Below the pieces are notes generated by a model that saw only the letters and a list, made by a program, of their open reading frames with translations, searched no databases and was not told the DNA's origin. DNA of 55,227 bases from a virus. Its lineage: Duplodnaviria; Heunggongvirae; Uroviricota; Caudoviricetes. The DNA is taken from positions 1 to 55,227 of IMG/VR virus record IMGVR_UViG_2718218434_000004. One strand, given 5' to 3'. Each line of letters opens with the position of its first letter. Within the stretch, counting starts at the first letter, position 1. The position numbers and the translations under genes are program-made. Positions 1 to 20,692 of this stretch are shown piece after piece.

Positions 1-282
1 CTACCTTTGCCTCTTGCCGCCATTTAACCGGAAGGCGTTACCGTTCGGTTGCGCTATCCCCATGCGGTGTTGCGTTTCGGTAACAGCTTTATGCAGGTCG
101 CCAAATTCCTCAACCTTCACGGGCGGGCGCTTCACGTTCTCCAGACACGTTTCACGGCGGCGCTTTATCCATTCCCGATCATCGTCCTCGGTGCATAACA
201 GCATGACTTCCATCCATCGTGCGGCAGCTCTCCGGTATAGCCCTTTTGACTCCAGCTCTTCAGCTTTCCTGTCCCTTATCAT
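1..282 (-). CDS. PerC-family transcriptional regulator-like protein
   Basis: 93-aa ORF, TAG stop at 1-3; EELESKGLYRRAAARWMEV motif shared with ORF 45139-45633 (EELESRGLYRRAATVWMAAF). Confidence 0.5.
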   Translation of the reverse strand: MIRDRKAEELESKGLYRRAAARWMEVMLLCTEDDDREWIKRRRETCLENVKRPPVKVEEFGDLHKAVTETQHRMGIAQPNGNAFRLNGGKRQR

Positions 283-318
283 TTCTGCCTCTCAGATTAT
301 ATAGATAAGCAAAAAGGT

Positions 319-439
319 GTTGGTTCAGTTGGTTCAGTTGGTTCAATTTGTAAAGAGTATTGTTTTTAAAAGAATTATTCGCAAAAAGTGAACCAACACA
401 CCCCATTTTTGAACCAACAAAAAGAGGCCGTGAACCAAC
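319..439. repeat. Iteron cluster: 3 tandem GTTGGTTCA (319-345) and 3 inverted copies TGAACCAAC at 21-bp phasing (389, 410, 431)
   Basis: Perfect 9-mers read directly from the sequence in an intergenic region; the 21-bp spacing puts sites on one face of the helix. Confidence 0.6.
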
Positions 440-513
440 ACGCCGTTTAAAAACCGCTAATTATGAGGGACATTCACCAGCACAGGGCTTGTCTAGTGCT
501 GGTTAGGTGCTGC

Positions 514-732
514 TCACCGCGCACGGAGCGGCGCTGGTTTGCTCCAGCGATATGCGGGGCTGGTCATCATTTCGCGGTACCGCCTGGCTATTACAGGGCC
601 CTCTGCCAGCTGGCGCCTTAATTCCCGCAGTTCTGCCGGGCTGAGCTGGTGGCCGCCATGCTCCAGCTTGGCAATGGTCAGCAGCTCGATTTCTCGTGGT
701 GTCATGGATTCCCCTCTGATGGTGATCGGCAT
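514..732 (-). CDS. hypothetical small protein
   Basis: 72-aa ORF next to the iterons; start may be the internal Met (MTPREIELL...). Confidence 0.3.
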   Translation of the reverse strand: MPITIRGESMTPREIELLTIAKLEHGGHQLSPAELRELRRQLAEGPVIARRYREMMTSPAYRWSKPAPLRAR

Positions 733-956
733 TATATTGCTAGCCAGGGTGATTCTTCACTGGCCAGAGCCGTTGTGCGTGAAGTCTATGCGTGAACTCC
801 ATATGCTATGTGTTAAGTTACAGCTCAAAATGTCCTGTTCCGGTGGTAACTTTTTGGTAAACAGCGTTTTGGTGGATACCAACATGGATACCTCGCTTTT
901 GGATACCACCCAAAGCCAGATTGTCACTATGCTTAATCTAAAGCAGAGGAGCCTCT

Positions 957-1142
957 ATGCGCCTTATCAAATTAAGCGAAGTCATGCTCAGAACGGGCTT
1001 CAAGAAAACGGCAATCTACTCATGGGTTAAGACGGGCACGTTTCCACAGCCAGTTAAAATTGGTAGATCAGCTAGATGGTCGCTTGAGGAGGTTGAAGCT
1101 TGGATCCAGAACAAACTTGATTCGCGGGCTGGCAACCAATGA
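957..1142 (+). CDS. alpA: AlpA-family phage transcriptional regulator
   Basis: 61 aa, MRLIKLSEV...TGFKKTAIYSWVKTGTFPQPVKIGRSARW typical of AlpA/Xis-like HTH; AGAGGAG RBS upstream. Confidence 0.65.
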   Translation: MRLIKLSEVMLRTGFKKTAIYSWVKTGTFPQPVKIGRSARWSLEEVEAWIQNKLDSRAGNQ

Positions 1143-1775
1143 TTAGCTTTAATATCGAGTGGTGGATAGTCCATGGACAAGCTGATGGGCGCACTCGACG
1201 AAAACGATGCGCCAGGCGGACTGTGTCGCTCATAAACCGGGAGTTGGCCAGAGGACTTAGTTGTCCTTTGCAATTCTGCAGGTTCGCACGTGAAAGTAGC
1301 CAAAACCCTGCGAACCTGAGTGCAAACCTGCAACTGCGAACCACTGAGGTGGCCTCTCATAGCTGGTGGTCATACTGGATATTAATCAGGCCTGCCACAA
1401 CCATAACAATCCATAACAGACGCATCGCACCAACAATTACTAATAGGTCCGCTCGCAACACTAATTTTGACTAAGCCTGAACGCAATGCTCAGAAAGAAC
1501 GAAGAATGGAATGAATCGTACCATCATGTTGCTCCATGATTTTTACGTTCAAGACAGTTGCTTAATCTCGCCTCGCAATTCAGCCCCCTTGCCGTTATCG
1601 AGAAGTCTTTCTCCTTACGGTTAATGCTATCGGTCTTCATATTACCAGCAGCATACGCCATCCGATTATTTCGATGCTACGCGCGCGTACTTGTCGCAAA
1701 ATACCAGGCAAAGGCCAGATTCAGAACGTCGTGATAACCACCAGTACAACATGAGAGGTCATGTAACGCGATTTA

Positions 1776-2156
1776 TCACACCAGATACATGTGATTGGTG
1801 TACCCGCATAAAACATCGTCATAGCGCGTCCTGTGCGCATATACGCCGATAATCAACACATCACCACCACTCTGTCTCATGTAGAGAACAGTTTTATGGT
1901 ATCCCCCCGCCATCGTGTGCATACTGGTCGGACGTAGTTGCAAAATTTTTTGCAACTGATACCCCTCGCGCGCGTACTTGTCTCGAAATTGGTGTTTTGC
2001 TGTGGCAGTGATATCAGAAAAATCTTCCTGTTTCACATAAAGCGGATATGCGCGTACTGTAACGGCCCCATCAACGGGGATCGGATTTGAAATCCCGACC
2101 CAAGCTATGTACCAAATGCCATGTCTTGGATATATGATGATTGCCATTCTAAACAA
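1776..2156 (-). CDS. hypothetical protein (doubtful; may be a decayed gene)
   Basis: 126-aa ORF in a coding-poor stretch; a 16-bp segment of it (1967-1982) is duplicated at 1680-1695. Confidence 0.2.
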   Translation of the reverse strand: MFRMAIIIYPRHGIWYIAWVGISNPIPVDGAVTVRAYPLYVKQEDFSDITATAKHQFRDKYAREGYQLQKILQLRPTSMHTMAGGYHKTVLYMRQSGGDVLIIGVYAHRTRYDDVLCGYTNHMYLV

Positions 2157-2635: not shown

Positions 2636-4741
2636 TTATTGAGCTTCCTTTTGCGATGCTTGTGCTGCTGTGGTCAGTGATTGTGTGACCGTACTGATCG
2701 CTCTGTCATATGCTGTGCTACCTTTTGGCGTATTTGCCAGACGTAACAAGGCATTTCGTATAACAGGGCTTTCGTATGCCTTCGCTGCTCCGCCTACGGC
2801 ACCAGCAGCAGGAACAACAAACGCAGCCGTTTTTAGCATCCCCGCTAATACTGCTGCGTTTATGATGCCACCACCAACTAACAATCCATAAAGCTGCTGA
2901 CCATTTAAGTTTTGAACGTTCGCTTTTGCCGCGTGTCTTGTATCGTTGAGGTATTTAATAACGCCGTCCAGTTCCTTTCCATGTACGCCTTTAAAGAAAG
3001 TTGCTGATTGCTTCCTGTTCCGGTGTAACGCATTAATAAACTTCTCAACACTGATATTTCCAGACGGATCAGTCGCCTTATCTACAGCATTCTGAACTAT
3101 GGCTGCTCGTGCGTTTTGCCTACCATTGTCATCCAGAAGCCTGTAAAGCTGAGAACGTTCTGATGGGCTTTGGCTAAAAACGAGTTTTGTTACATCCTCA
3201 GGCGTGGCCTTGCCGCTGGCTATTGCCTTTTGAACGCGCGTTCTTCCCATCATGTCATTGAATTTAGACCATGAGCGATCAACCCTTGCCATATTAATGG
3301 CTTCGTCTGCTCCAAGATTTTTGGCTACGGCTTTTTTCATATCCGCCGTATATGCCTTGTAGATAATATCGCTGGCTTTCTGGAGCGTATCTTTATCAAC
3401 AGTGTCAGATGACGCCATAAATCGCTTTCGAAGATCGGTTCTGTTTTCCCTCGCCAGACGCAGGTCATTTGGTCCGCTGGTGATATCGTCTTTAAATTGC
3501 TGCAAGACTTTTACCGCGGCTCTATCCTGAGATTTGCCCGGGCGGCTTAACACGGCAATCTGATTGTCGATAGCTTTTACCGTGTTTGAGAGATCGACAG
3601 GGGTATCCCCCATAGCGTCAATTATGCGGTTATATCGCTTTCCTGCTGCCTCAATGAATTTTTGTTGCCCTTTAGTCGCAGATTCATAAAGCTGTTTATC
3701 AGAAATGCCACCCAGACCATCGCTAAATGTTCTGACTAAATTTTCTCGTGCTTGTTGTTGATTCAGCCGATTCTTACCGGTTCCAAAAAAAGGAACTCTT
3801 TCGCCTAATGTCTGAGCCTGACTCTGCATAAAGGTTTTATCTTTCAGCATGTCACTGGTCATTAACGGCAGATTTCTTTCCGATGCAAAGTTGACAGCAG
3901 CCTTTGCTTCAGGCGACATATCACCACGAACAGCCCTCGAAACCGCACTCGCTGTATTTTCCAGCCCCTTACCAATACCACCAATGCCAGCAGAAATTAC
4001 CGTTTGTAACGGATCAATATCTTCTCCACCAGCAAGGCTGGTGGCTCCCTGTAGTGCTAAATCTGTAGCTGCTGATTTTCCTATGGCACCAAGCACCGTT
4101 CCAGCCCTGCCCGCTGGTGTAAACGCCAGCGCATTAGCCAGAAACGATGCCACGTCTTGCGGCGATAAACCCGGCTTGTTCAGAGCATAATCACCGGATG
4201 GCAGGGAAACGATAGTGTTACCCTTCTCATCCTGCCTTAATTTCGCTCCCATGCTCTGAAGAATCTTTTCCTGAGATGCGTCAGAGCCGAAAAGTTGAGA
4301 CCATCGAGCTTTTAGAGCATCCATGCTGAGTGAGGTTAACTCTGGGGCAAAGTCGACATTTTGCAGTCTCTCCATCTCTGGAGTCATTCGGCTTTCGCCT
4401 GTTATAGCATCGCGCATAGCAGCCCCAAGACTGGCTCCCTGTTCTGCTGAACGCTCAAGCCCCTCTCTTTGCTGAGTAGCTAACTTTGCATACCCTGACG
4501 CAAGAGAATTATCAGATGATGTATGTTGAATATTTTGAGTTGCTGATTGGGATCGGTCTATTTCATTCGTTGATGGTAGTGGATAGGCAGCATAAAAAGC
4601 CTGCTTAGCCTGCTCTACACTTTCTCCGGCTTGCGGGGCAACGACTTCATTGAAGTATTGCTCCTGAGCCTGCGCTTTTTGTTCTGGTGCTAACGCCTGA
4701 TACTGTGGAGAGGCGATAACATCTTTCCATGCTTTAGCCAT
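2636..4741 (-). CDS. uncharacterised 701-aa helical protein with C-terminal Gly/Ala-rich hydrophobic segment
   Basis: Long ORF translationally coupled to the upstream 246-aa ORF; no Walker A motif; segment LLVGGGIINAAVLAGMLKTAAFVVPAAGAVGGAA near the C-terminus. Confidence 0.6.
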   Translation of the reverse strand: MAKAWKDVIASPQYQALAPEQKAQAQEQYFNEVVAPQAGESVEQAKQAFYAAYPLPSTNEIDRSQSATQNIQHTSSDNSLASGYAKLATQQREGLERSAEQGASLGAAMRDAITGESRMTPEMERLQNVDFAPELTSLSMDALKARWSQLFGSDASQEKILQSMGAKLRQDEKGNTIVSLPSGDYALNKPGLSPQDVASFLANALAFTPAGRAGTVLGAIGKSAATDLALQGATSLAGGEDIDPLQTVISAGIGGIGKGLENTASAVSRAVRGDMSPEAKAAVNFASERNLPLMTSDMLKDKTFMQSQAQTLGERVPFFGTGKNRLNQQQARENLVRTFSDGLGGISDKQLYESATKGQQKFIEAAGKRYNRIIDAMGDTPVDLSNTVKAIDNQIAVLSRPGKSQDRAAVKVLQQFKDDITSGPNDLRLARENRTDLRKRFMASSDTVDKDTLQKASDIIYKAYTADMKKAVAKNLGADEAINMARVDRSWSKFNDMMGRTRVQKAIASGKATPEDVTKLVFSQSPSERSQLYRLLDDNGRQNARAAIVQNAVDKATDPSGNISVEKFINALHRNRKQSATFFKGVHGKELDGVIKYLNDTRHAAKANVQNLNGQQLYGLLVGGGIINAAVLAGMLKTAAFVVPAAGAVGGAAKAYESPVIRNALLRLANTPKGSTAYDRAISTVTQSLTTAAQASQKEAQ

Positions 4742-5481
4742 TAATCACCCCATAGTGAAGAAAAGTTACTGCTGGCTGCTGGCTGTGATACCTGCTCAGA
4801 TTGCGGCAATGTCTGCGACGAAGAAGAAGTTCCTCTGTCAACTGCTGAAATAACCCGCAAAGCATCATAAGCTCGACCAGAAGCAGCTTTCAGCGAATTG
4901 AACTGGTTTTCCATCTTCCGGCGCTTGGTATCAATGGTTTTTGTGGAGTCGCCAGGCTGAGGGAAATACATTTGATAATATTTTGACATTTCAGCAGGTG
5001 CGATAGCTGCCCCTGTTTCCTGACGGAGTATTGCCATTATTGCGTCATTAGCATTAACAACGTATTGCTGCTCTGTTGGGCTGAGCGTTAAGTTAGCCAG
5101 CGTCCCATTACCCAAAGCATTATTAATGATCGCCACTCGCTGTGGGCTAAGCTGGTCTTTCAGTGTATCTATTGAATCAAGAGCATCCCTAACCCTGTAT
5201 GCAAATCCAGCAGCTTTTTTAGCCCCTTCTGGCGACTTTTCCATGATCTTTTGGGCTGTTGGCAAAGCTATTGGACGAAACCCATCTCCAGATATTGGCT
5301 GGTTTAGTTTTCCCTGCTCTTCACTTCCGTCTGTGTAGTATTTTGTGACAGTGCCATCATCGTTTTCTCTAACACTCATTAATTTTTTGGCGTTTGTATT
5401 AATTCCAGCCGCTGCCGCAAATGCCGCCGCCCCCTCTGGATCCGCCTTTAACATTTGAGCGTACTGATTGTAATTCTGCAT
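4741..5481 (-). CDS. uncharacterised 246-aa protein, same operon as the primase
   Basis: ORF starts 27 bp after the primase stop and overlaps the start of the 701-aa ORF. Confidence 0.55.
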
Positions 5482-5507: not shown

Positions 5508-6857
5508 TTAACGCATTTGCTCGGCTACCCCACCAGCTTTAAGTGTGCGCCATCCTTCACGTTCACCAATATCAGCCAGTGGAATGGCAGCGGTTGTCGG
5601 CGTTTCAGAACCAAACGACAGCCAGCGAAGAATGAGATACTGGTCTTTATCGTCTCTGCCAGTACCGATAACGCTTAACGGAGAACATAACCAGCTTTCG
5701 TTATTGATGATTTCTCCACTCTGGCTGTCAGCTCTCGGAGATACCCAATAAATACCATCCTCGCGGCTTTCTATTCTTGGTTTCAGTGGGTCGGTATCCA
5801 TAACCTTAAAATCGCTTCCCTCAATGGTCTGTGGCTCCTGTTTCACGCCATTACCCTGTGGTTGGTACATTGACTTATTGAACGCTTCTGTGGCGCATTT
5901 AATGCCGTGTTTTTGGTGGTAATCATTCCAGTCTGCTTTGTGATCTGTCGGGGGTAATGCCACCCATCCAGAAACAGATAAAGCTGCTTTTTCTGCTGCT
6001 ATTCTCCCCGTGTTTTGTCTTCCTTCGCTGTGGTCGTTATCCGCAGCAATGATGATTTGTGCTGAAGGAAATTTATCCCGCAGTACCTGGGCGACATATA
6101 ACAGGTTCCCGGCATCAATCGCCGCCACTGTCAGCGCCTCTGGACGAATTAAATGGGCAGATAATGCCGTTGCCAGCCCTTCTGCGATTAAGATGCTCTG
6201 TGTTGTTTCTGGCGCGTTTATGGCGTGATATGCCCCCCGCTTTGCTGAACCTGTCAGGAGTCTTTTTTCACCATGTGATGTAATAGTCTGTGCTGCTGTG
6301 ACTGCGCCGGATTTATCCACCAGCGCCAGCAACAGAGATCCATCGGGCAACACGGGGAATGTAAAATCACCTACCCCTTTCGCAACCAGATAATCAGATT
6401 TGCCGTTTACAGCCTTTCTGCGCATGTCATCAAACTGACGGGAAAACGTATCCCGTCTTTGTTGTTCGTCCTTCTCTGCTCTTTTCAGGCGCTCCTGTTC
6501 GCGTCGCTGGCGCTCGGTTTCCAGTTGTTCCCGTTTCTGGCTGGTGGCTTCTGGTGTTTCCGTTGTCCGGTAATCAATACCCAGAACATCAGCGGCAAGA
6601 AGCGCCGCCTCTGTTGTGTCGCAGTTATTTACGCGTTTAATTAAATCCAGCCCATCACCAGCGCCGCACTGATTACAGATGAAGCTACCGCGCCCGTTGT
6701 CATCGAACCGGAATCGATCTTTGCCCCCACATGCAGGGCAGGGAGCATGACGGCGCGGAGAGTCAGGGACATTTATGTTCAGGCAGCCCAGCACATGAGG
6801 CCAGTTGTTTTCAGACGCACTGATAACCTGACGGATAAGATCAATGTTTCGCATCAC
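5508..6857 (-). CDS. DNA primase (zinc-ribbon plus Toprim, P4 alpha N-terminal-like; no helicase domain)
   Basis: [14 protein letters not shown]...[12 protein letters not shown] zinc-binding motif and Toprim-like [17 protein letters not shown] in a 449-aa ORF. Confidence 0.7.
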
Positions 6858-7212
6858 CGTACCCCACGTGGTCTATAGCGTTTGCGATATGGCTAACCAG
6901 CATCTGCCACTTGGTTATTCCGTAATCAGTCAGCATGCCATCATTGTTTAGCCACATATCAAATTCAGCGGTTGTCGCAAGTTTCCACTTATCGCCGTGG
7001 ACAGTCCTCATTGCTGGGTACATGAATGCGCAAATCAGATCACAAACATCTGACGGCTTCAGAGATGTAGTAATGGTGCGTCCCTCTGGCGTCTGAATTG
7101 CCATTTTCTCTTCACCAGTAGAATGAAGGTTATGAATCCACACAGCACCAGCAATCTTTGCCACCTGCTCTCCGATTGCGGAGCTAAGCGCCATTTCTGC
7201 ATTTTCACGCAT
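6841..7212 (-). CDS. hypothetical protein
   Basis: 123-aa ORF in a tightly packed same-strand array upstream of the primase. Confidence 0.4.
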   Translation of the reverse strand: MRENAEMALSSAIGEQVAKIAGAVWIHNLHSTGEEKMAIQTPEGRTITTSLKPSDVCDLICAFMYPAMRTVHGDKWKLATTAEFDMWLNNDGMLTDYGITKWQMLVSHIANAIDHVGYGDAKH

Positions 7213-7546
7213 GAGAACCTCCCGCTACAGTTGCGCCCATGTCATTAACCATGCTTTGCCATATCTCACGCCCGACGTCAGTCAATCCGTCCTTAGTGAC
7301 GCAACGCTCAAGAAGCTCGATCCCCACGGTTTCCCACTGCGGGTAGAACACTTTCATGGCTGCCAGTGTGTAGCTATCGATCAGGCTGCGAACGCCTTTT
7401 ACTCCATTAACGATTTCCACACGTACGGCCTCGCCGTCCGCATCAACCATGAAATAGTCCCCGCCGCTGGTGGAGGTAATGTGGTTATACAGTGCCGACG
7501 CATACTTATTTGCCAGCGCATTCAGTCGGAAATTTTTAGTAATCAT
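7205..7546 (-). CDS. hypothetical protein
   Basis: 113-aa ORF, overlapping gene junctions typical of phage operons. Confidence 0.4.
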   Translation of the reverse strand: MITKNFRLNALANKYASALYNHITSTSGGDYFMVDADGEAVRVEIVNGVKGVRSLIDSYTLAAMKVFYPQWETVGIELLERCVTKDGLTDVGREIWQSMVNDMGATVAGGSHA

Positions 7547-7556
7547 GGCTCCATCC

Positions 7557-8159
7557 TCAGTGCGTCACTGGTTCCGCTGGCATGCCGTTTTCATTCAGTT
7601 CAGCTATAAAGCTGTTGTGAAGTTCAGCAAGCGTTTCACGACCAAATGGAGTCAGTGCTCCTTGTTCCACATCCATCATGGCTCTGTAGAAAATGATGGC
7701 GCGTTCTGTGCCAGACTCGATGCCAAAACGTTCTATCATCGCTCCCTCAATGTTGTTTGCCATAGCGAGGCGCTCTGCTACTGGATACAGCGGCATGGCG
7801 ACGATGCCGTTGGAATAAACAGCCACTTCGGAAGGATTGCCAGTATCATCAATGATGCTGACAGTGCCGTTTTCCTCTCTCATTTCCAGCATGAATACTG
7901 TTGCGATCAGCCATCTCCACATAATGACGTTATGCTGTGATGTGTAATCGAAATATCCCTGGTTGCCGCCATCGGCAATAGCGAGATGTATTGACATACC
8001 TTCATCTGGTTTATCGTCATAATCCCCGGCATCCAGACGATTTACGGCATCAATATATGAGACGGCCTCAACGCGTTCTGTCATGCCATCGTTGCTGCGG
8101 TACATGATGTTTACGCCGTCAGGCGTTGCTTCTGTATGGAAAGTTAAGAAATTATTCAT
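7557..8159 (-). CDS. hypothetical protein
   Basis: Start set at internal ATG (MNNFLTF...) just after the upstream gene's stop; the longer ORF would overlap it. Confidence 0.4.
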   Translation of the reverse strand: MNNFLTFHTEATPDGVNIMYRSNDGMTERVEAVSYIDAVNRLDAGDYDDKPDEGMSIHLAIADGGNQGYFDYTSQHNVIMWRWLIATVFMLEMREENGTVSIIDDTGNPSEVAVYSNGIVAMPLYPVAERLAMANNIEGAMIERFGIESGTERAIIFYRAMMDVEQGALTPFGRETLAELHNSFIAELNENGMPAEPVTH

Positions 8160-8373
8160 GTTTCGCCTCGCCTGAATGATTCTGTAACTCATATTTGCCC
8201 AACAATTCGTCCGCTTCATGAATAGCTTCTGGTACGCCATTGAGCAGTGACATAACCGCGCCAATCATTAACTTGTCTCTGTTGCTGGGGCTGGCCCCTT
8301 CAAGCCAGAACCCTAAAACAGTCTGAACCTGTTCGATGCGACATTGCGCTTCAATGAGCTGGATGTTGGTCAT
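8152..8373 (-). CDS. hypothetical small protein
   Basis: 73-aa ORF in the same-strand array. Confidence 0.35.
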   Translation of the reverse strand: MTNIQLIEAQCRIEQVQTVLGFWLEGASPSNRDKLMIGAVMSLLNGVPEAIHEADELLGKYELQNHSGEAKHE

Positions 8374-8633
8374 TTCGCACTCTCCACATCGATTAAACCG
8401 ATATCTATCAGGGAGGTAACTTTTTGTAGCCAGCTATTGATTACTGTCGCCTGTTCCCCGCCCACCGAGGGAACAATCTCATTCATCACATGAACCAGAC
8501 CTGTGCGCGCTCTGGTAAGCCGTTCAGTCGCGCAATCTGCGGGAGTGAATGTGTCTGGATATGGCTCTTCACGCCCCAGCAATGATTCAATTTCCAGCTC
8601 ACACGGATGACGATAAATTAAGTTGATATTCAT
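8370..8633 (-). CDS. hypothetical small protein
   Basis: 87-aa ORF, 4-bp overlap with neighbours. Confidence 0.35.
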   Translation of the reverse strand: MNINLIYRHPCELEIESLLGREEPYPDTFTPADCATERLTRARTGLVHVMNEIVPSVGGEQATVINSWLQKVTSLIDIGLIDVESAK

Positions 8634-8824
8634 TTTTCACCACCAAGAATTACCAGCTCTGCACGGGCATCGTTAACCAAAGATGAGCACGCTTTAATCG
8701 CATCCACGACATCAGCAGCGTCCATTTCTTCAGCCGAAAGACTGACAGCAACCAGGACAGCCGCTGCTTGCTCGATTAATTGAAGTGCGGACGTAAGGCG
8801 AGGGGTATTAATTGAGTTATTCAT
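8630..8824 (-). CDS. hypothetical small protein
   Basis: Start set at MNNSINTPRL; overlaps the stop of the upstream gene. Confidence 0.35.
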   Translation of the reverse strand: MNNSINTPRLTSALQLIEQAAAVLVAVSLSAEEMDAADVVDAIKACSSLVNDARAELVILGGEK

Positions 8825-9035
8825 TGGTTGCCCCCGTTTTGCATGGCATTTGTCCACCTTCCAGCAGGAAATGAACGTCACGAACGGCGAGGTCCAATAT
8901 CGCGAGTAACGCCTTCAGTTTTTCGTCTCGTGAGGGAGAGTTGCTCACCAGAATGTCATTAATCACTTCTGTCAGTGTGATGATCTGGCTTGTGCGTTCG
9001 AGGGGGTCCATATGCACATCGTAGGTTTTAATCAT
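8817..9035 (-). CDS. hypothetical small protein (C-terminal part of the 355-aa ORF)
   Basis: Internal ATG at 9035 preceded by a GGAGGTGG RBS; downstream 72 aa look protein-like. Confidence 0.4.
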   Translation of the reverse strand: MIKTYDVHMDPLERTSQIITLTEVINDILVSNSPSRDEKLKALLAILDLAVRDVHFLLEGGQMPCKTGATNE

Positions 9036-9884
9036 GTGCCACCTCCATGCGGATACGACCAGCAAAAAAGCAGATGTGATCGCGCACCAGAGAACGGCGA
9101 GCATCGCGTTCAGACTCGGCAGCAATATGATGAATTTTGGCGGTAATTGTCGGGCAATCGCGGCGAACTGCGGCGATAATCCAGATAAATTGCGTTTTTT
9201 GGGTAGGGGTAGTAGCCAGCATGTGGCAGCCTCCTTCAGATAGCAGGTTACGCTACCACCGGAAACGCCAATTTCGCTGGTGGTAGCCCAGACAGGGTTG
9301 GCGTAACCGGCTCTGAAGGATACCGGCGCTTCCGAAGAAGCCCCCGCCTGAGCCACCATTGATTGACAAAGGCGCTGGATTATACACCAACGCCCAAAAA
9401 ATGGGTGAGTCAGACCTACGACATAAAAAAAGACGCTCGGCGCGTCATATGTCGCCTTCAGAATTTTCAGGACGCCAATCCCGGCACCCGTTTTATGAGG
9501 TGCCTTATAACCATAAACCGTGTTGCCGCATAACGGCAAGCTCTTTTTTATGGACTCCGAAAACTCACTATTGGAAGAACCAGAAGCACAGTACATCGCG
9601 CTCATTTCGTTAACGTCACGCGCGTGGACGAAGGTTTTTGTGGAGTCACTACACGAGCAGAGAAAGCCATCTACGACCAGAAATTCTCTGGCATAGCCGC
9701 TGACCTTCTCAACGCTAACACCATCGACCGTAATTTCTGACATAGTTAAGGCATCCGCTCCTACCACCAGCAAATGATAAACTTTGCTTGTATCTGCTGT
9801 ATTAATGTCTGACTTTGCTGTCATATTGCTGGATTTTGGCGACATACCAGCCAGTGAAAATATCTTCTTCTGGGCGGTTAGCAT
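9036..9884 (-). CDS. hypothetical protein, 3' boundary uncertain (possibly frameshifted)
   Basis: N-terminal about 160 aa of ORF 8817-9884 look protein-like; the central part is Cys/Trp/Pro-rich like out-of-frame translation. Confidence 0.25.
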
Positions 9885-10147
9885 TTGTTAACCTCCGCGA
9901 ACTCCTTCATGAAACGTGCCAGCGGTTGTACGCATGGCGATTGATACCCGTCGCGATAAAACGTCACTCGGTTGTGAGACACGCTTTCGACAGTAACGAG
10001 TGCTCCGTGGGCATCTTTGTAGCGTTTTTGAGGTTGTGGTGTTCCTGTCGGCTTAAACATGGACCGCCTCCAGACGCTTGGCGAGCCAGCGTTGCGACAG
10101 GCGGGTGAGTTCTCCTTTGCGCTGCTCATATTCCATGCCCATATCAA
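9878..10147 (-). CDS. hypothetical small protein
   Basis: 89-aa ORF between the antirepressor and the small-gene array. Confidence 0.3.
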   Translation of the reverse strand: MIWAWNMSSAKENSPACRNAGSPSVWRRSMFKPTGTPQPQKRYKDAHGALVTVESVSHNRVTFYRDGYQSPCVQPLARFMKEFAEVNKC

Positions 10148-10886
10148 TTAACGTGATATTGGTGCTTTCGAGATATGAGAGGTGCTCAAGCTGTTCTGCG
10201 TTCATATGGTCGCGAGGTTCGCCAGAATAGCCATTTATCCGCGCCCACTGCTTAGCAGTTAGCCCACCAAGAACGATACGAGAAATCATATTGCTCTCGT
10301 TTGTGTAGTGGTGTTGCTGCGTCGTTTTCCCCATCTCGGCACGGGCCATATTCAGCGCATCGCACATTGGCTTAAAGTTGTTTGCGGCACTGATACGGGC
10401 TTTTAGCTGGCGACGATAGCGGGCGGCGATTTCAGGCACGCTACGCTGTAATTCTTCCTCGCACTGGATGAAATAACGACGGATAGCGCGACCCTGATCA
10501 TTGCGTTCGATCATTGCCAGTTCTTTCGCCATTCCGACACTTAACAGATAGTCTTTGCCGGGTCTGCCAGACTGCTTAATCTTGCTGTAAGCCGCGCCAT
10601 TCGGGCTTTTCCCCAAATTTGGGGAAATTGTTTTATGGACTGAGTAATCGTGCCCAATGGTGAAGTCATATTCAGAGATGCGATCAGTGATCCATGTAGA
10701 GAAGTCTTTTCCCACGCCCAACGCTTTGTGTAACGCTTTTGCGCTAACAATATTGGTTTCACGCCCACCGATATGACCAGGAATAACCGGGACAATTGCG
10801 GCAAATTCATTACCGTTAATTGTGCCCAGAGAGGCGTTCAGATGAGGGGCAGCCTCAGAAATTAATCTGCTTTTTTCGATGTTCAT
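10053..10886 (-). CDS. phage antirepressor (AntA/AntB N-terminal plus KilA-C type)
   Basis: 277-aa ORF; sequence pattern consistent with Ant/KilAC antirepressors (recalled, not searched). Confidence 0.55.
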   Translation of the reverse strand: MNIEKSRLISEAAPHLNASLGTINGNEFAAIVPVIPGHIGGRETNIVSAKALHKALGVGKDFSTWITDRISEYDFTIGHDYSVHKTISPNLGKSPNGAAYSKIKQSGRPGKDYLLSVGMAKELAMIERNDQGRAIRRYFIQCEEELQRSVPEIAARYRRQLKARISAANNFKPMCDALNMARAEMGKTTQQHHYTNESNMISRIVLGGLTAKQWARINGYSGEPRDHMNAEQLEHLSYLESTNITLIDMGMEYEQRKGELTRLSQRWLAKRLEAVHV

Positions 10887-10898
10887 TTTCAGTCTCCG

Positions 10899-11330
10899 TT
10901 AGGCGGCGTTAAACGCGTCCGGGTAGAGTTTCAGAATGTCGGCAATTTCCTGCTGAGAAAGTCCGTTGTGATCATTTATGTTCGCAAGATGGTTAATATG
11001 AGTGATCACTTTCAGAACATCACCACGGCAGGAGAAACGGTAGCGAAGGTGTGTTCCGATACCATCAGGATTCTTTTCGTCGATACGCTCCAGAGTGATT
11101 CCAAGCTGGCGTTCTAACTCTGTTGCATAGTTACGACCAGAAGACAGACGGCAGTAGCGAAGAATGTCGTTTTCTGTCCATCCCTCTATACCAGTTCGCA
11201 GCATATAGACTCGGGCACGATGCTTTTTCGGTGTGCGCTTTGGTGCTTGAAGGGATTTTGTAAGGGGCGTAATATCAGATACGCGAATATCTGAATTAGC
11301 CGCCTGTAATGGGCGGTTTTTCTTTTCCAT
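10899..11330 (-). CDS. hypothetical protein (basic N-terminus, possible DNA-binding regulator)
   Basis: 143-aa ORF immediately downstream of alpA in the same operon. Confidence 0.4.
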   Translation of the reverse strand: MEKKNRPLQAANSDIRVSDITPLTKSLQAPKRTPKKHRARVYMLRTGIEGWTENDILRYCRLSSGRNYATELERQLGITLERIDEKNPDGIGTHLRYRFSCRGDVLKVITHINHLANINDHNGLSQQEIADILKLYPDAFNAA

Positions 11331-11533
11331 CAGGCCACCTCGTCTCTAGATTCTAATATACACTTCTCAATCCATTCATCTATTTCAGACTCAACAAAAG
11401 CAATAGCCCGACTTCCAATTTTTACCTGTTTAGGGAACCTCCCCTGACTAATAAGACGATAAATCCATGCTTTGCTATAACCAGTTCGCCTTTGAACTTC
11501 AGAGAGACGAATTAATGAATTGTAATTAGCCAT
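11330..11533 (-). CDS. alpA: AlpA-family transcriptional regulator / excisionase-like
   Basis: 67 aa, LIRLSEVQRRTGYSKAWIYRLISQGRFPKQVKIGSRAIAF; sits beside a P4-type integrase as in CP4-57. Confidence 0.65.
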   Translation of the reverse strand: MANYNSLIRLSEVQRRTGYSKAWIYRLISQGRFPKQVKIGSRAIAFVESEIDEWIEKCILESRDEVA

Positions 11534-11622
11534 TTATTAATATCCTGTACTAATGACGCAATAACCCCCTCCTGCAACGAATGGCGAGAGTTTTATTTGC
11601 GTCAAATGTCGAATACGCCAAA

Positions 11623-11662
11623 GACCACAATATGAAAAACATATTGCGGTCTTTTATAAAAG
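11623..11662 (+). terminator. hairpin plus T-run (terminator-like) in the int-alpA intergenic region
   Basis: GACCACAATATG-aaaaa-CATATTGCGGTC followed by TTTTATAAAAG; no plus-strand gene upstream. Confidence 0.3.
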
Positions 11663-11960
11663 ATAGTCAGATTGTTTTGGTTTGTTTGCTCCACAAGGGT
11701 AGAGCTACCCTGCATTTCGGCAGGATCACGCTATTAGGCGTGACATCCAGTAGTTTTAAAGAACAATTGCGCTTTGTCAGCGCCAAAGCCTGTTAAAGAA
11801 CATTCCGCTTTTCAGCAGCGTAGAAGGCTCAATACACCTTCGTTTATAAAAGAGCGATTGCCCTTCTCCAGGGCTAACTGTTAAATAGCAATCCTCTGTG
11901 AGTTTTTATCAATCTACTCCCCTATACTTTAGTAAACCTCTGTATACTTGTCCAGTTGTT

Positions 11961-13175
11961 TCATGCGTGTTTTTCAAACACCATATGCACCACATTTCCG
12001 CCATGCTCGAGAGAATCCATATAGTCGGCATACCATTGAAGCATCTCCCGCCTTCCATCCAGATATTGCGCATGGTTGTATGTGCCACGAATTGAGTTCT
12101 TATCAACGTGAGCGAGCTGAGTTTCTATCCACGCAGTGTTATAGCCCTGCTCATGCAAAATCGTACTCATAGTGTGCCGGAACCCATGACCAGTTACACG
12201 TCCAGCGTAGCCAATGCGCTTAAACACTTGGTTTATGCTGGCCTCACTCATTGTTTTCCTTGGATCATTGCGCCCGGGAAACATAAGAGGGTAATTGCCT
12301 GTTATTTCTCTAATCTTCCCAATAAGCGAAAGAGCCTGCTCAGACAATGGCACAATATGAGGCCGCCGCATTTTCATACGTGAAGCGGGTATCTCCCAGA
12401 TAGCCTTGTTGAAATCAATTTCATCCCATAATGCGCCACGTAGTTCGCCAGTTCGCAAGCCGGTGATAATCAGTAGACGAGCCGCCATAACAACCAATGC
12501 GCTTCCTGAGTAACTGGACAATGCCTTGAAAAAATCAGGTAATTCTTTGGCTGTAAGGAAAGGGTAATGATTAGATTCATGGCCTTGCATCGCGCTAGTA
12601 AGGTCTGGTGCAGGGTTATACTCTGCGCGACCAGTGACTATTGCATAGCGGAAAACTTCCCCGCACCGCTGCCTCACTTTTTTGGCTTTTTCTGTAGCAC
12701 CTCGCCCCTCGATGCGCCGCAGCACATTCAGAAGTTCAAGTGGTTTGATTTCGGCGATTGGTTTTTTGCCAATGTAAGGGAACACATCTTTGTTGAAGGC
12801 TTCGAGGATGTCTGAAGCATAACCAGCAGACCATTTTTTTAATTTGCTGCTGTGCCACTCAAGGGCAATATCTTTGAAGGTGTTGTTTAACTGCGTTTCC
12901 CGGGCAATCTTTTCCTCTCGTTTCGCTTCCATCGGATCGATACCACCAGCGATACCTCTTTTCGCATCTTCACGTTTTGCCCGAGCATCGGCTAGAGTAA
13001 CCTCAGGATACACACCTAGTGCCAATAGCTTCTCTTTACCAGCTACACGATATTTAAGTCGCCAGTATTTACCTCCATTAGGTTTTACCAAGAGATACAA
13101 ACCGCCACCATCGGCCAGCTTGTAAGCCTTCTCTTTTGGCTTGGCTGTGTCTATTTGACGGGCATTGAGTTTCAC
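11961..13175 (-). CDS. int: P4-family tyrosine integrase
   Basis: 404 aa; N-terminus MKLNARQIDTAKPKEKAYKLADGGGLYLLVKPNGGKYWRLKYR is the P4/CP4-57 integrase signature; C-terminal R..H..R..Y catalytic region. Confidence 0.85.
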   Translation of the reverse strand: MKLNARQIDTAKPKEKAYKLADGGGLYLLVKPNGGKYWRLKYRVAGKEKLLALGVYPEVTLADARAKREDAKRGIAGGIDPMEAKREEKIARETQLNNTFKDIALEWHSSKLKKWSAGYASDILEAFNKDVFPYIGKKPIAEIKPLELLNVLRRIEGRGATEKAKKVRQRCGEVFRYAIVTGRAEYNPAPDLTSAMQGHESNHYPFLTAKELPDFFKALSSYSGSALVVMAARLLIITGLRTGELRGALWDEIDFNKAIWEIPASRMKMRRPHIVPLSEQALSLIGKIREITGNYPLMFPGRNDPRKTMSEASINQVFKRIGYAGRVTGHGFRHTMSTILHEQGYNTAWIETQLAHVDKNSIRGTYNHAQYLDGRREMLQWYADYMDSLEHGGNVVHMVFEKHA

Positions 13176-13240
13176 TTGGGGGTACCTCCACTAAACCGAA
13201 CAGCAAATACCCCCATAAGTACCCCCATCTGACCGTAGAT

Positions 13241-13323
13241 TTTGAGGGACTTTAGTAGACGTCAAAAGACGAACGGGGCTTTAATACGCGGATTATAATG
13301 GGTTTTGAAAGACTTTAGTAGAC
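13241..13323. repeat. two 20-bp direct repeats TTTGA(G/A)(G/A)GACTTTAGTAGAC (13241-13260, 13304-13323); putative integrase arm sites
   Basis: Near-identical repeats 63 bp apart between the integrase start and the att core. Confidence 0.5.
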
Positions 13324-13338
13324 TTGGGGAGATGTTTG

Positions 13339-13386
13339 AATGGTGCCGATAATAGGAGTCGAACCTACGACCTTCGCATTACGAAT
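13339..13386. repeat. att site: 48-bp direct repeat of the thrW 3' end (junction between element A and prophage B)
   Basis: Identical to 53782-53829; sequence diverges immediately outside both copies. Confidence 0.85.
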
Positions 13387-20107: not shown

Positions 20108-20692
20108 TTACTCCGGATATTTAAAAATTACGTAGGTATGCGACGGGCAGAGTTTGTTAAGCACACATTCGACAACGGTGTCGCCCCAGATACGCAGCGC
20201 GGAATCACAGGGATCGCCACATGTCATCCAGGTGGTGTTTGTGGCGGCTGGCATGTTGACCTGCCAGTAATACCGCCATTCCGGCGCATTCACCGCGTCA
20301 GTACAGACCGATGAGCAGGTGAACGTGCTTTTGTCGTATCGCGTGATGTTGGCATCTGGTCTGCCCAGGGCAGCAAGCTGTGCAAGGTAAAAATCCTCAT
20401 TGATGCCGCCCGCCAGATTAACCTTCGCATCCAGCCGTTGCTGACGCTGGCGAAGGGTCTGCGTCCCTGCCGGAATACATTCATCCGGCAGGCCGCACAG
20501 ACGCTCCCAGCGGTTTATCAGTTCAGTGGTGGTGCGCGGATCCAGCTCCCGCATCAGGGCATCCGCACGCTGATGAACACGGGTTAATGACGGTGCCGCA
20601 CCGGCAATCGCCGGATCGCTGGCTGACCACGCCGGACCGGGGGGCAACAGTGCCGACAACAGACGGATGTAATCATCGTTTGTCACGTCCAT
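20108..20692 (-). CDS. phage tail protein, YmfQ/DUF2313 (Mu gp48-like)
   Basis: 194 aa, same length as e14 YmfQ; position between baseplate J and tail fibre. Confidence 0.55.

Follow-up and report, generated by a model that had tools for sequence, protein, structure and literature searches.

An orphaned iteron array in an EcCIMP1-family PICI of E. coli, probably the distal of two origin modules

Origins of PICIs, SaPIs and P4

The replication origins of PICIs and SaPIs were reportedly treated by Ubeda and colleagues in 2007. In these origins opposed sets of short iterons, 6–12 in total, are placed around an A+T-rich centre, and the specificity tracks the C-terminal domain of the Rep helicase-initiator. 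According to Qiao et al (2022; PMC9371898), a winged helix at the C-terminus of SaPI Reps recognises the 6–12 iterons, and the proteins self-load as hexamers at both sides of the A+T-rich centre. The PICI origin directly follows rep, and an A+T-rich region between two sets of iterons is always part of it; for EcCICFT073, Rep-driven replication of a plasmid was shown to depend on the region 3′ of rep (Fillol-Salom et al, 2018; PMC6092414). For P4, the layout and the iteron were taken from the annotated GenBank record, in which crr, with its type 1 repeats, is positioned 46 bp after the stop codon of alpha and ori is 4.7 kb away, adjoining ORF88, which encodes a putative DNA-binding protein. The same record labels crr as required in cis for replication. 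Iteron plasmids of the RepA/pi type, which are subject to handcuffing, also have repeated short sites for their initiator, a stretch of A+T-rich DNA at which unwinding occurs, and further sets of iterons beyond the minimal origin.

The array described here occupies positions 319–439 of the window, by which we mean the whole 55,227-bp stretch of DNA that was analysed, and is part of an island with the PICI gene content int, alpA, pri-rep and perC. As in the PICI and SaPI origins, two opposed iteron sets (3 + 3) are arranged around an A+T-rich region, and the specificity of the candidate initiator, Pri-Rep, likewise appears to track its C-terminal domain. The origins as described form a single block immediately 3′ of rep, whereas the array is not in this position but between perC and alpA_1. 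In intact relatives of the island it is a second complete, inverted module 7.6–8.5 kb from pri-rep, with its sister in the canonical position of the PICI origin. EcCIMP1 resembles P4 in that a single primase-helicase initiator has two clusters of iterons, the first just after its gene and the second kilobases away, in an intergenic stretch beside the gene of a small DNA-binding protein. Two separated clusters are seen in EcCIMP1, AR_452, 21EVA and five other genera, while the window keeps the distal one only.

The array would, by comparison, belong to the PICI/SaPI kind of origin, with a likeness to P4 ori/crr in arrangement only. When Pri-Rep is compared with P4 alpha, only alpha residues 5–339, the primase, align (34% identity, E 9e-44), with no significant match between alpha and the helicase and origin-binding parts of Pri-Rep, and a search of the PDB with Pri-Rep found no P4 alpha chain. 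Pri-Rep is not, in other words, an alpha-type initiator combining a primase, the P4 helicase and the alpha origin-binding domain. The repeat of the array, (T)GTTGGTTCA, is not the P4 type I iteron, TGTTCACC. In addition, P4 crr consists of two direct 120-bp repeats and is not an inverted copy of the ori module, and the island is without the P4 genes sid, psu and delta. The likening of the repeats to iterons of the P4 alpha type in the initial annotation holds as an analogy, the primase domain being homologous and the layout comparable, but does not extend to the iteron itself (TGTTCACC as against TGTTGGTTCA here) or to the helicase, which shows no detectable relationship. In contrast to the iteron plasmids, where a dimeric winged-helix Rep recruits DnaB, the initiator here would be a hexameric, self-loading helicase.

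The island, its array and its deletion

On the basis of synteny and near-identity the island is assigned to the EcCIMP1 family of E. coli PICIs and is a satellite of Kapi1, a P22-like phage. EcCIMP1 itself was reported from E. coli MP1 in 2025, with Kapi1 mobilising it (Pick, Stadel and Raivio; PMC11773190); the origin and the iterons are not mentioned in that paper. Many E. coli chromosomes match the first 1,500 bases of the window at 100% identity, and in these the island adjoins paoD/yagU and carries genes for an integrase, a small HTH protein, antA, ash, an icd-like gene, a 918-aa TOPRIM+DUF927 primase-helicase, P22-like ejection proteins, alpA and perC. The identity to the MP1 locus is 99% over window positions 1–2101 and 98% over 5526–13386. 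The PerC and AlpA_1 products annotated at this locus are those of the window, with which it also shares its synteny and the tRNA-Thr / yagU-side chromosomal region. The island of the window differs from EcCIMP1, which in MP1 has both iteron modules, in retaining only the distal module, in a 3,958-bp deletion running through pri-rep and the ejection-protein genes, and in its injection-protein allele. The region 2636–5481 contains P22-type DNA-ejection/injection genes, one for an 'injection protein' of 701 aa and one, truncated, for a 'phage DNA ejection protein', consistent with Kapi1, a P22-like phage, as helper. The injection-protein allele varies among relatives, that of MP1 being the lytic-transglycosylase form. 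A related island in the dinD–yicG region of E. coli M160133 (L088), a second chromosomal location, also carries the unit of perC and distal module; its injection-protein gene is interrupted by an IS66 element.

The left arm of the putative origin module (319–345, plus strand) is made up of three tandem copies of the 9-bp iteron GTTGGTTCA, at 319–327, 328–336 and 337–345 (period 9), which are kept in the distal modules of six genera. In the right arm (389–439, minus strand) three inverted iterons, reading on the plus strand as the reverse complement TGAACCAAC, are found at 389–397, 410–418 and 431–439. The start-to-start distances are 21 and 21 bp, equivalent to two helical turns; the iterons of this arm are kept while the 12-nt spacers between them diverge. 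The repeat cluster reported in the initial annotation, three tandem copies and three reverse complements at 21-bp intervals, is therefore present as six exact copies at 319–439. These are the only exact copies of the 9-mer in the window, and since six fall within 121 bp, as against approximately 0.42 expected in the whole window on both strands, a chance repeat was rejected. Matches to the 9-mer with one mismatch elsewhere in the window are at chance level (18 compared with 13.4 expected). Four of the six copies are part of the 10-mer TGTTGGTTCA (at 318, 389, 410 and 431), the remaining two tandem copies being AGTTGGTTCA.

The spacer between the opposed iteron sets (346–388, 43 bp) is 79% A+T, compared with 50% for the whole window, and is a candidate DNA-unwinding region. 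Its first ~20 nt (ATTTGTAAAG...) are also common to the rep-proximal module of relatives. Neither a DnaA box (≤1 mismatch) nor an IHF consensus was found in 250–520. A search of positions 1–2000 against Rfam gave no match at E ≤ 1, making an RNA gene unlikely.

The array is intergenic, as first noted, with perC to the left and a 72-aa ORF to the right. It had also been described as flanked by regulator-like genes; this is correct for PerC on the left side, but on the right side the AlpA-family gene is one gene further off. The perC-family gene (1–282, minus strand; Pfam PerC, E 3.7e-30) is transcribed away from the array, and its product, WP_000617443.1, as in EcCIMP1_025, is also annotated in AR_452, where the DNA is 100% identical, and in MP1. 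A TATAAT hexamer on the minus strand (297–302), 14 nt before the ATG of perC, is a possible −10 element for this gene. It is no more than a reading of the letters, as a scan of 150–1200 for consensus promoters and terminators found nothing. The minus-strand TATAAT is kept next to the distal modules, with the tandem iterons 16–43 bp upstream of it, and as the hexamer sits just outside these iterons the binding of Rep might also affect perC.

The 72-aa ORF (514–732, minus strand) is without annotation or Pfam match. It is a paralogue of a 61-aa hypothetical protein of the same island, WP_000188903.1, which is encoded beyond perC, and shows 54–70% identity to copies in other genera. Beyond it, alpA_1 (957–1142, plus strand; Pfam Phage_AlpA, E 1.9e-13) is the Xis-like AlpA-family gene of EcCIMP1 (PMC11773190); within its ORF a shorter RefSeq CDS of 159 bp (WP_049066248.1) is annotated in AR_452 and MP1. 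Three direct repeats of TGGATACC (at 873, 885 and 900, spanning 873–907) lie 50–85 bp upstream of the alpA_1 start codon. The motif is seen six times in the window compared with 1.36 expected, and the triplet is a candidate operator or arm-type site, separate from the iterons.

Relative to AR_452 (locus L001), 3,958 bp are missing from the window, with positions 20527 and 24485 of that locus joined at 5526/5527. The truncated pri-rep (5526–6857, minus strand) encodes residues 1–443 of the 918-aa TOPRIM+DUF927 primase-helicase, and its ORF continues for six unrelated codons past residue 443 to a stop at 5508. Lost with the deletion are residues 444–918 of Pri-Rep, comprising the helicase core and the C-terminus, and the proximal origin module, in addition to two small ORFs (162 bp, DUF2824), an ORF of 678 bp and a portion of an ejection-protein gene, the remainder of which is left truncated beside the junction. 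The DUF2824 gene is present in intact relatives. The C-terminal half of Pri-Rep is not encoded anywhere else in the window. Given that none of 5,426 complete E. coli genomes has the junction, the deletion is a private and probably recent lesion. By removing both Pri-Rep 444–918 and the proximal module it has orphaned the array. The primase of the element had been named for binding assays with the repeats; in the form encoded in the window it could not bind them, because its helicase and C-terminal half are deleted. The orphan array could be expected to act only with a Rep of the same specificity supplied in trans.

Sister modules and Pri-Rep in the relatives

In alignments with intact relatives, window positions 312–376 match, inverted, a stretch starting ~25 bp after the pri-rep stop codon. 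This stretch repeats the layout of the module, with a tandem triplet of iterons, an A+T-rich spacer and a phased inverted triplet, and it is present in AR_452, 21EVA and EcCIMP1 of strain MP1. In EcCIMP1 a distance of 8.5 kb separates the module that follows pri-rep from the one lying between perC and alpA_1. Among seven distinct distal modules from six genera, the Pri-Reps of which are ~63–99% identical to the E. coli protein, the iteron columns are 95% identical pairwise, compared with 55% for the non-iteron columns and 62% for the spacer columns inside the modules. The iteron value was reached by none of 2,000 random column sets. The count of 3 + 3 iterons and the 21-bp phasing are also kept across the distal modules. 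As the spacers of the proximal and distal modules inside one island have diverged, recent gene conversion does not account for the conservation of the iterons. The module is found in 537 of 5,426 complete E. coli genomes, at a median of two places per genome.

Relatives of Pri-Rep were surveyed at 80 loci, one per species, of which 59 have a full-length gene, and in 55 of the 59 an iteron array begins 25–125 bp after the stop codon. Over these 55 loci there are more than ten iteron types, changing by lineage, including GTTGGTTCA, TGTTGTCTC, GTAACCCGT, GTCGGTTCA, GTTGTACCA, TGTGGTTCA, TGACACACT, TTATCCCA, GTTACACC, TGTTACCA, TGTAGTACA and others. The commonest form is a single block of ~12 iterons in ~250 bp. 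The clearest of these long origins, from Morganella (L031) and the Klebsiella cfPICI, are seen to be two inverted 6-iteron modules side by side. In the contiguous form the half homologous to the array is within 300 bp of rep, and in the Klebsiella cfPICI the rep-distal half is 81% identical to window positions 300–419. The GTTGGTTCA class of E. coli, Lonsdalea, Chimaeribacter, Pantoea, Leclercia and Cedecea is split 6 + 6, with the second set 5.9–9 kb downstream and the distal module oriented like the rep-distal half of the long form. One circular E. coli record, of 12 kb, has only 1.8 kb between the modules, so that the split form ranges from 1.8 to 9 kb over the E. coli lineage and the five other genera. 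The DNA between the halves carries ejection-protein or tape-measure-like genes and accessory genes. Two loci (L027 and L028) have the 6-iteron proximal module only, within 10 kb, which suggests that the distal module may be dispensable.

The simplest reading would be that the array is the distal half of an origin split by intervening DNA. No description of a split PICI origin was found in the searchable literature; thus, while the type of module is known, the split arrangement appears to be undescribed. In a blastn search of a phage collection in distant mode there was no DNA match besides a Klebsiella 'phage' record containing the cfPICI.

A number of further observations concern the records of these relatives. 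Two circular records entered as non-mobilizable plasmids (L085, NZ_CP148430.1; L086, NZ_CP069874.1), 12.2 kb and 16 kb in size, represent satellites in excised form, one an EcCIMP1-like PICI and the other a capsid-forming PICI, and the 106-kb record of 'Klebsiella phage P12620-1' (L002, PQ569648.1) includes this cfPICI segment as well. That related islands have been deposited as circular 'plasmids' of 12–16 kb is indirect support for autonomous replication. In Lonsdalea, Chimaeribacter, Pantoea and Cedecea (L015, L022, L026 and L040) a GTCTTAC direct repeat is positioned just outside the distal module. L022, L026 and L040 have in addition an ORF of 132–150 aa (MSKSLSVTFR...) with its start no more than ~110 bp from the module, and there is no ORF of this type among those of at least 100 aa in L015. 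The pair of repeat and ORF is absent from the window. Vitreoscilla stercoraria (L074), with a Rep of 34% identity, has two large clusters of a different iteron, GTGGTTACA, at +177 to +436 and +630 to +878 after the rep stop codon; these clusters, ~200 bp apart, may be an independently divided origin.

In MP1 the full-length Pri-Rep is WP_001244111.1. A full-length relative matches Pfam DUF927 (E 3.5e-47), and the helicase part of Pri-Rep matches PDB entry 8tch (E 1.5e-11), a staphylococcal chain named 'Pathogenicity island protein' by its depositors, and more weakly 5dgk. The C-terminal 105 residues match nothing. These features are those of a SaPI Rep / DUF927 helicase with a C-terminal DNA-binding domain, as would suit a cognate initiator, though the C-terminal fold itself is not confirmed. 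An AlphaFold2 model of the full-length protein (mean pLDDT 37.9, pTM 0.22), built from an input alignment of 10 sequences ~80% identical, was too poor to confirm a winged helix, so that the fold can only be inferred.

Among close homologues, of the 918 columns of the Pri-Rep alignment only eight fully separate the GTTGGTTCA class (class A, n = 18) from the TGTTGTCTC class (class B, n = 5). All eight are within residues 823–910 and five of them within 891–896 (RKSP-I as against GRV-E). The Klebsiella Rep has an unrelated N-terminus, a C-terminal motif QKSPRI and the same iteron. The iteron sequence is thus specific to Rep and co-varies with it. The Rep of L033 (52% identical) has the class B iteron but a different C-terminal motif, and the co-variation between the two classes could partly reflect the common ancestry of the five class B proteins. 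As judged from these sequences, the only constant partner of the iteron motif is the C-terminus of Pri-Rep, and we infer that the iterons are bound by a DNA-binding domain at this end of the protein.

Function of the distal module

The array at 319–439 is probably the distal of two origin modules of an EcCIMP1-family PICI, orphaned here by the deletion. The suggestion in the initial annotation that it is a candidate satellite origin is well supported by the PICI/SaPI layout, by the near copy of the module 3′ of pri-rep and by the way in which the iteron tracks the Pri-Rep C-terminus. To all appearances the array has every part of a minimal SaPI/PICI origin and as such is a candidate for initiation. 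A partition site and a pac or cos site were also considered and found to have no support; an origin is favoured over these because of the co-variation with Rep and the copy adjoining rep.

It would seem likely that, on induction by a helper phage, Pri-Rep would form hexamers on the opposed sets of iterons, open the A+T-rich centre between them and then serve as a self-loaded replicative helicase, with the P4-alpha-like primase domain of Pri-Rep priming synthesis. The anatomy of the array, its paralogy with the module next to rep, the conserved iterons, their co-variation with the Rep C-terminus and the deletion are observed; Rep binding, melting and initiation at the distal module are predictions. 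In most relatives the two modules are back to back directly after rep, as one origin of ~12 iterons. In the EcCIMP1 lineage 1.8–9 kb of DNA with ejection-protein and accessory genes separates them, so that the origin would be bipartite. A stronger version of this, put forward tentatively and by analogy, is that the EcCIMP1-type origin is truly bipartite, in that both inverted 6-iteron modules are needed in cis and are brought together through Rep-mediated looping, as for P4 ori and crr. The distal module, and not the one beside rep, might then be the start site, and the half-origins might serve as recombination anchors for the exchange of cargo cassettes between islands.

The conservation of the iterons fits equally a site at which Rep binds without initiating replication. 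As such an auxiliary or control site the array might be a crr-like looping enhancer, a site for handcuffing or titration, or a Rep-dependent operator of perC, although on balance we consider this unlikely. There is a precedent in P4, where the cis-required crr follows alpha and ori is kilobases away, and both the spacing of the tandem iterons from the conserved minus-strand TATAAT before perC and the two relatives with a proximal module only would be in keeping with such a role. The module is, however, complete on its own, being equal to half of a 12-iteron origin and to the SaPI minimum of six iterons, and no consensus promoter was found beside it. Moreover, in Lonsdalea, Chimaeribacter and Pantoea perC adjoins the proximal module, on the side of the phased iterons, so that a fixed geometry between iterons and promoter is not conserved.

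It is very doubtful that the array is a non-functional scar, in the sense of a half-origin left over after the insertion of cargo into, or recombination at, a contiguous ancestral origin. The split form does resemble a long origin with 1.8–9 kb inserted between its halves, and in the window the array is certainly orphaned, but across six genera the iterons have stayed almost invariant while the spacers and flanks have fallen to 55–62% identity, the 3 + 3 count and the phasing have survived with them, and the divergence of the proximal from the distal spacers argues against recent gene conversion. Phased direct repeats are typical of operator arrays, and the array is intergenic, beside PerC and near AlpA-family genes; nevertheless, that it is an operator for AlpA_1, PerC or the product of the 72-aa ORF, controlling divergent or adjacent genes and unrelated to replication, is scarcely credible when the same 9-mer in the same layout directly follows pri-rep in intact relatives, the motif varies with the Rep C-terminus, the distal modules of other genera have no adjacent AlpA_1 homologue and no consistently adjacent PerC, the Klebsiella cfPICI has the same iterons with a 111-aa hypothetical ORF beyond the array and no PerC, and alpA_1 has its own TGGATACC triplet upstream. 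The earlier idea of a regulator-binding array for AlpA is not supported, distal modules elsewhere being without AlpA_1 and a separate triplet preceding alpA_1 here.

PICI origins have been recognised by position, as a single iteron block right after rep, and the split form seen in the EcCIMP1 lineage and five other genera departs from this. Roughly one complete E. coli genome in ten has the module, usually in two copies, and it is never annotated. If a distal origin module needs its proximal partner, so that both halves are required, PICI replication in the EcCIMP1 lineage would be closer to that of P4 than to that of the SaPIs, and deleting or moving cargo could disable replication. The island of the window would be replication-defective alone, but the site that it retains could let a related Rep drive it. 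This is relevant to the engineering of PICIs as delivery vehicles and to forecasting which degraded islands may remain mobilisable.
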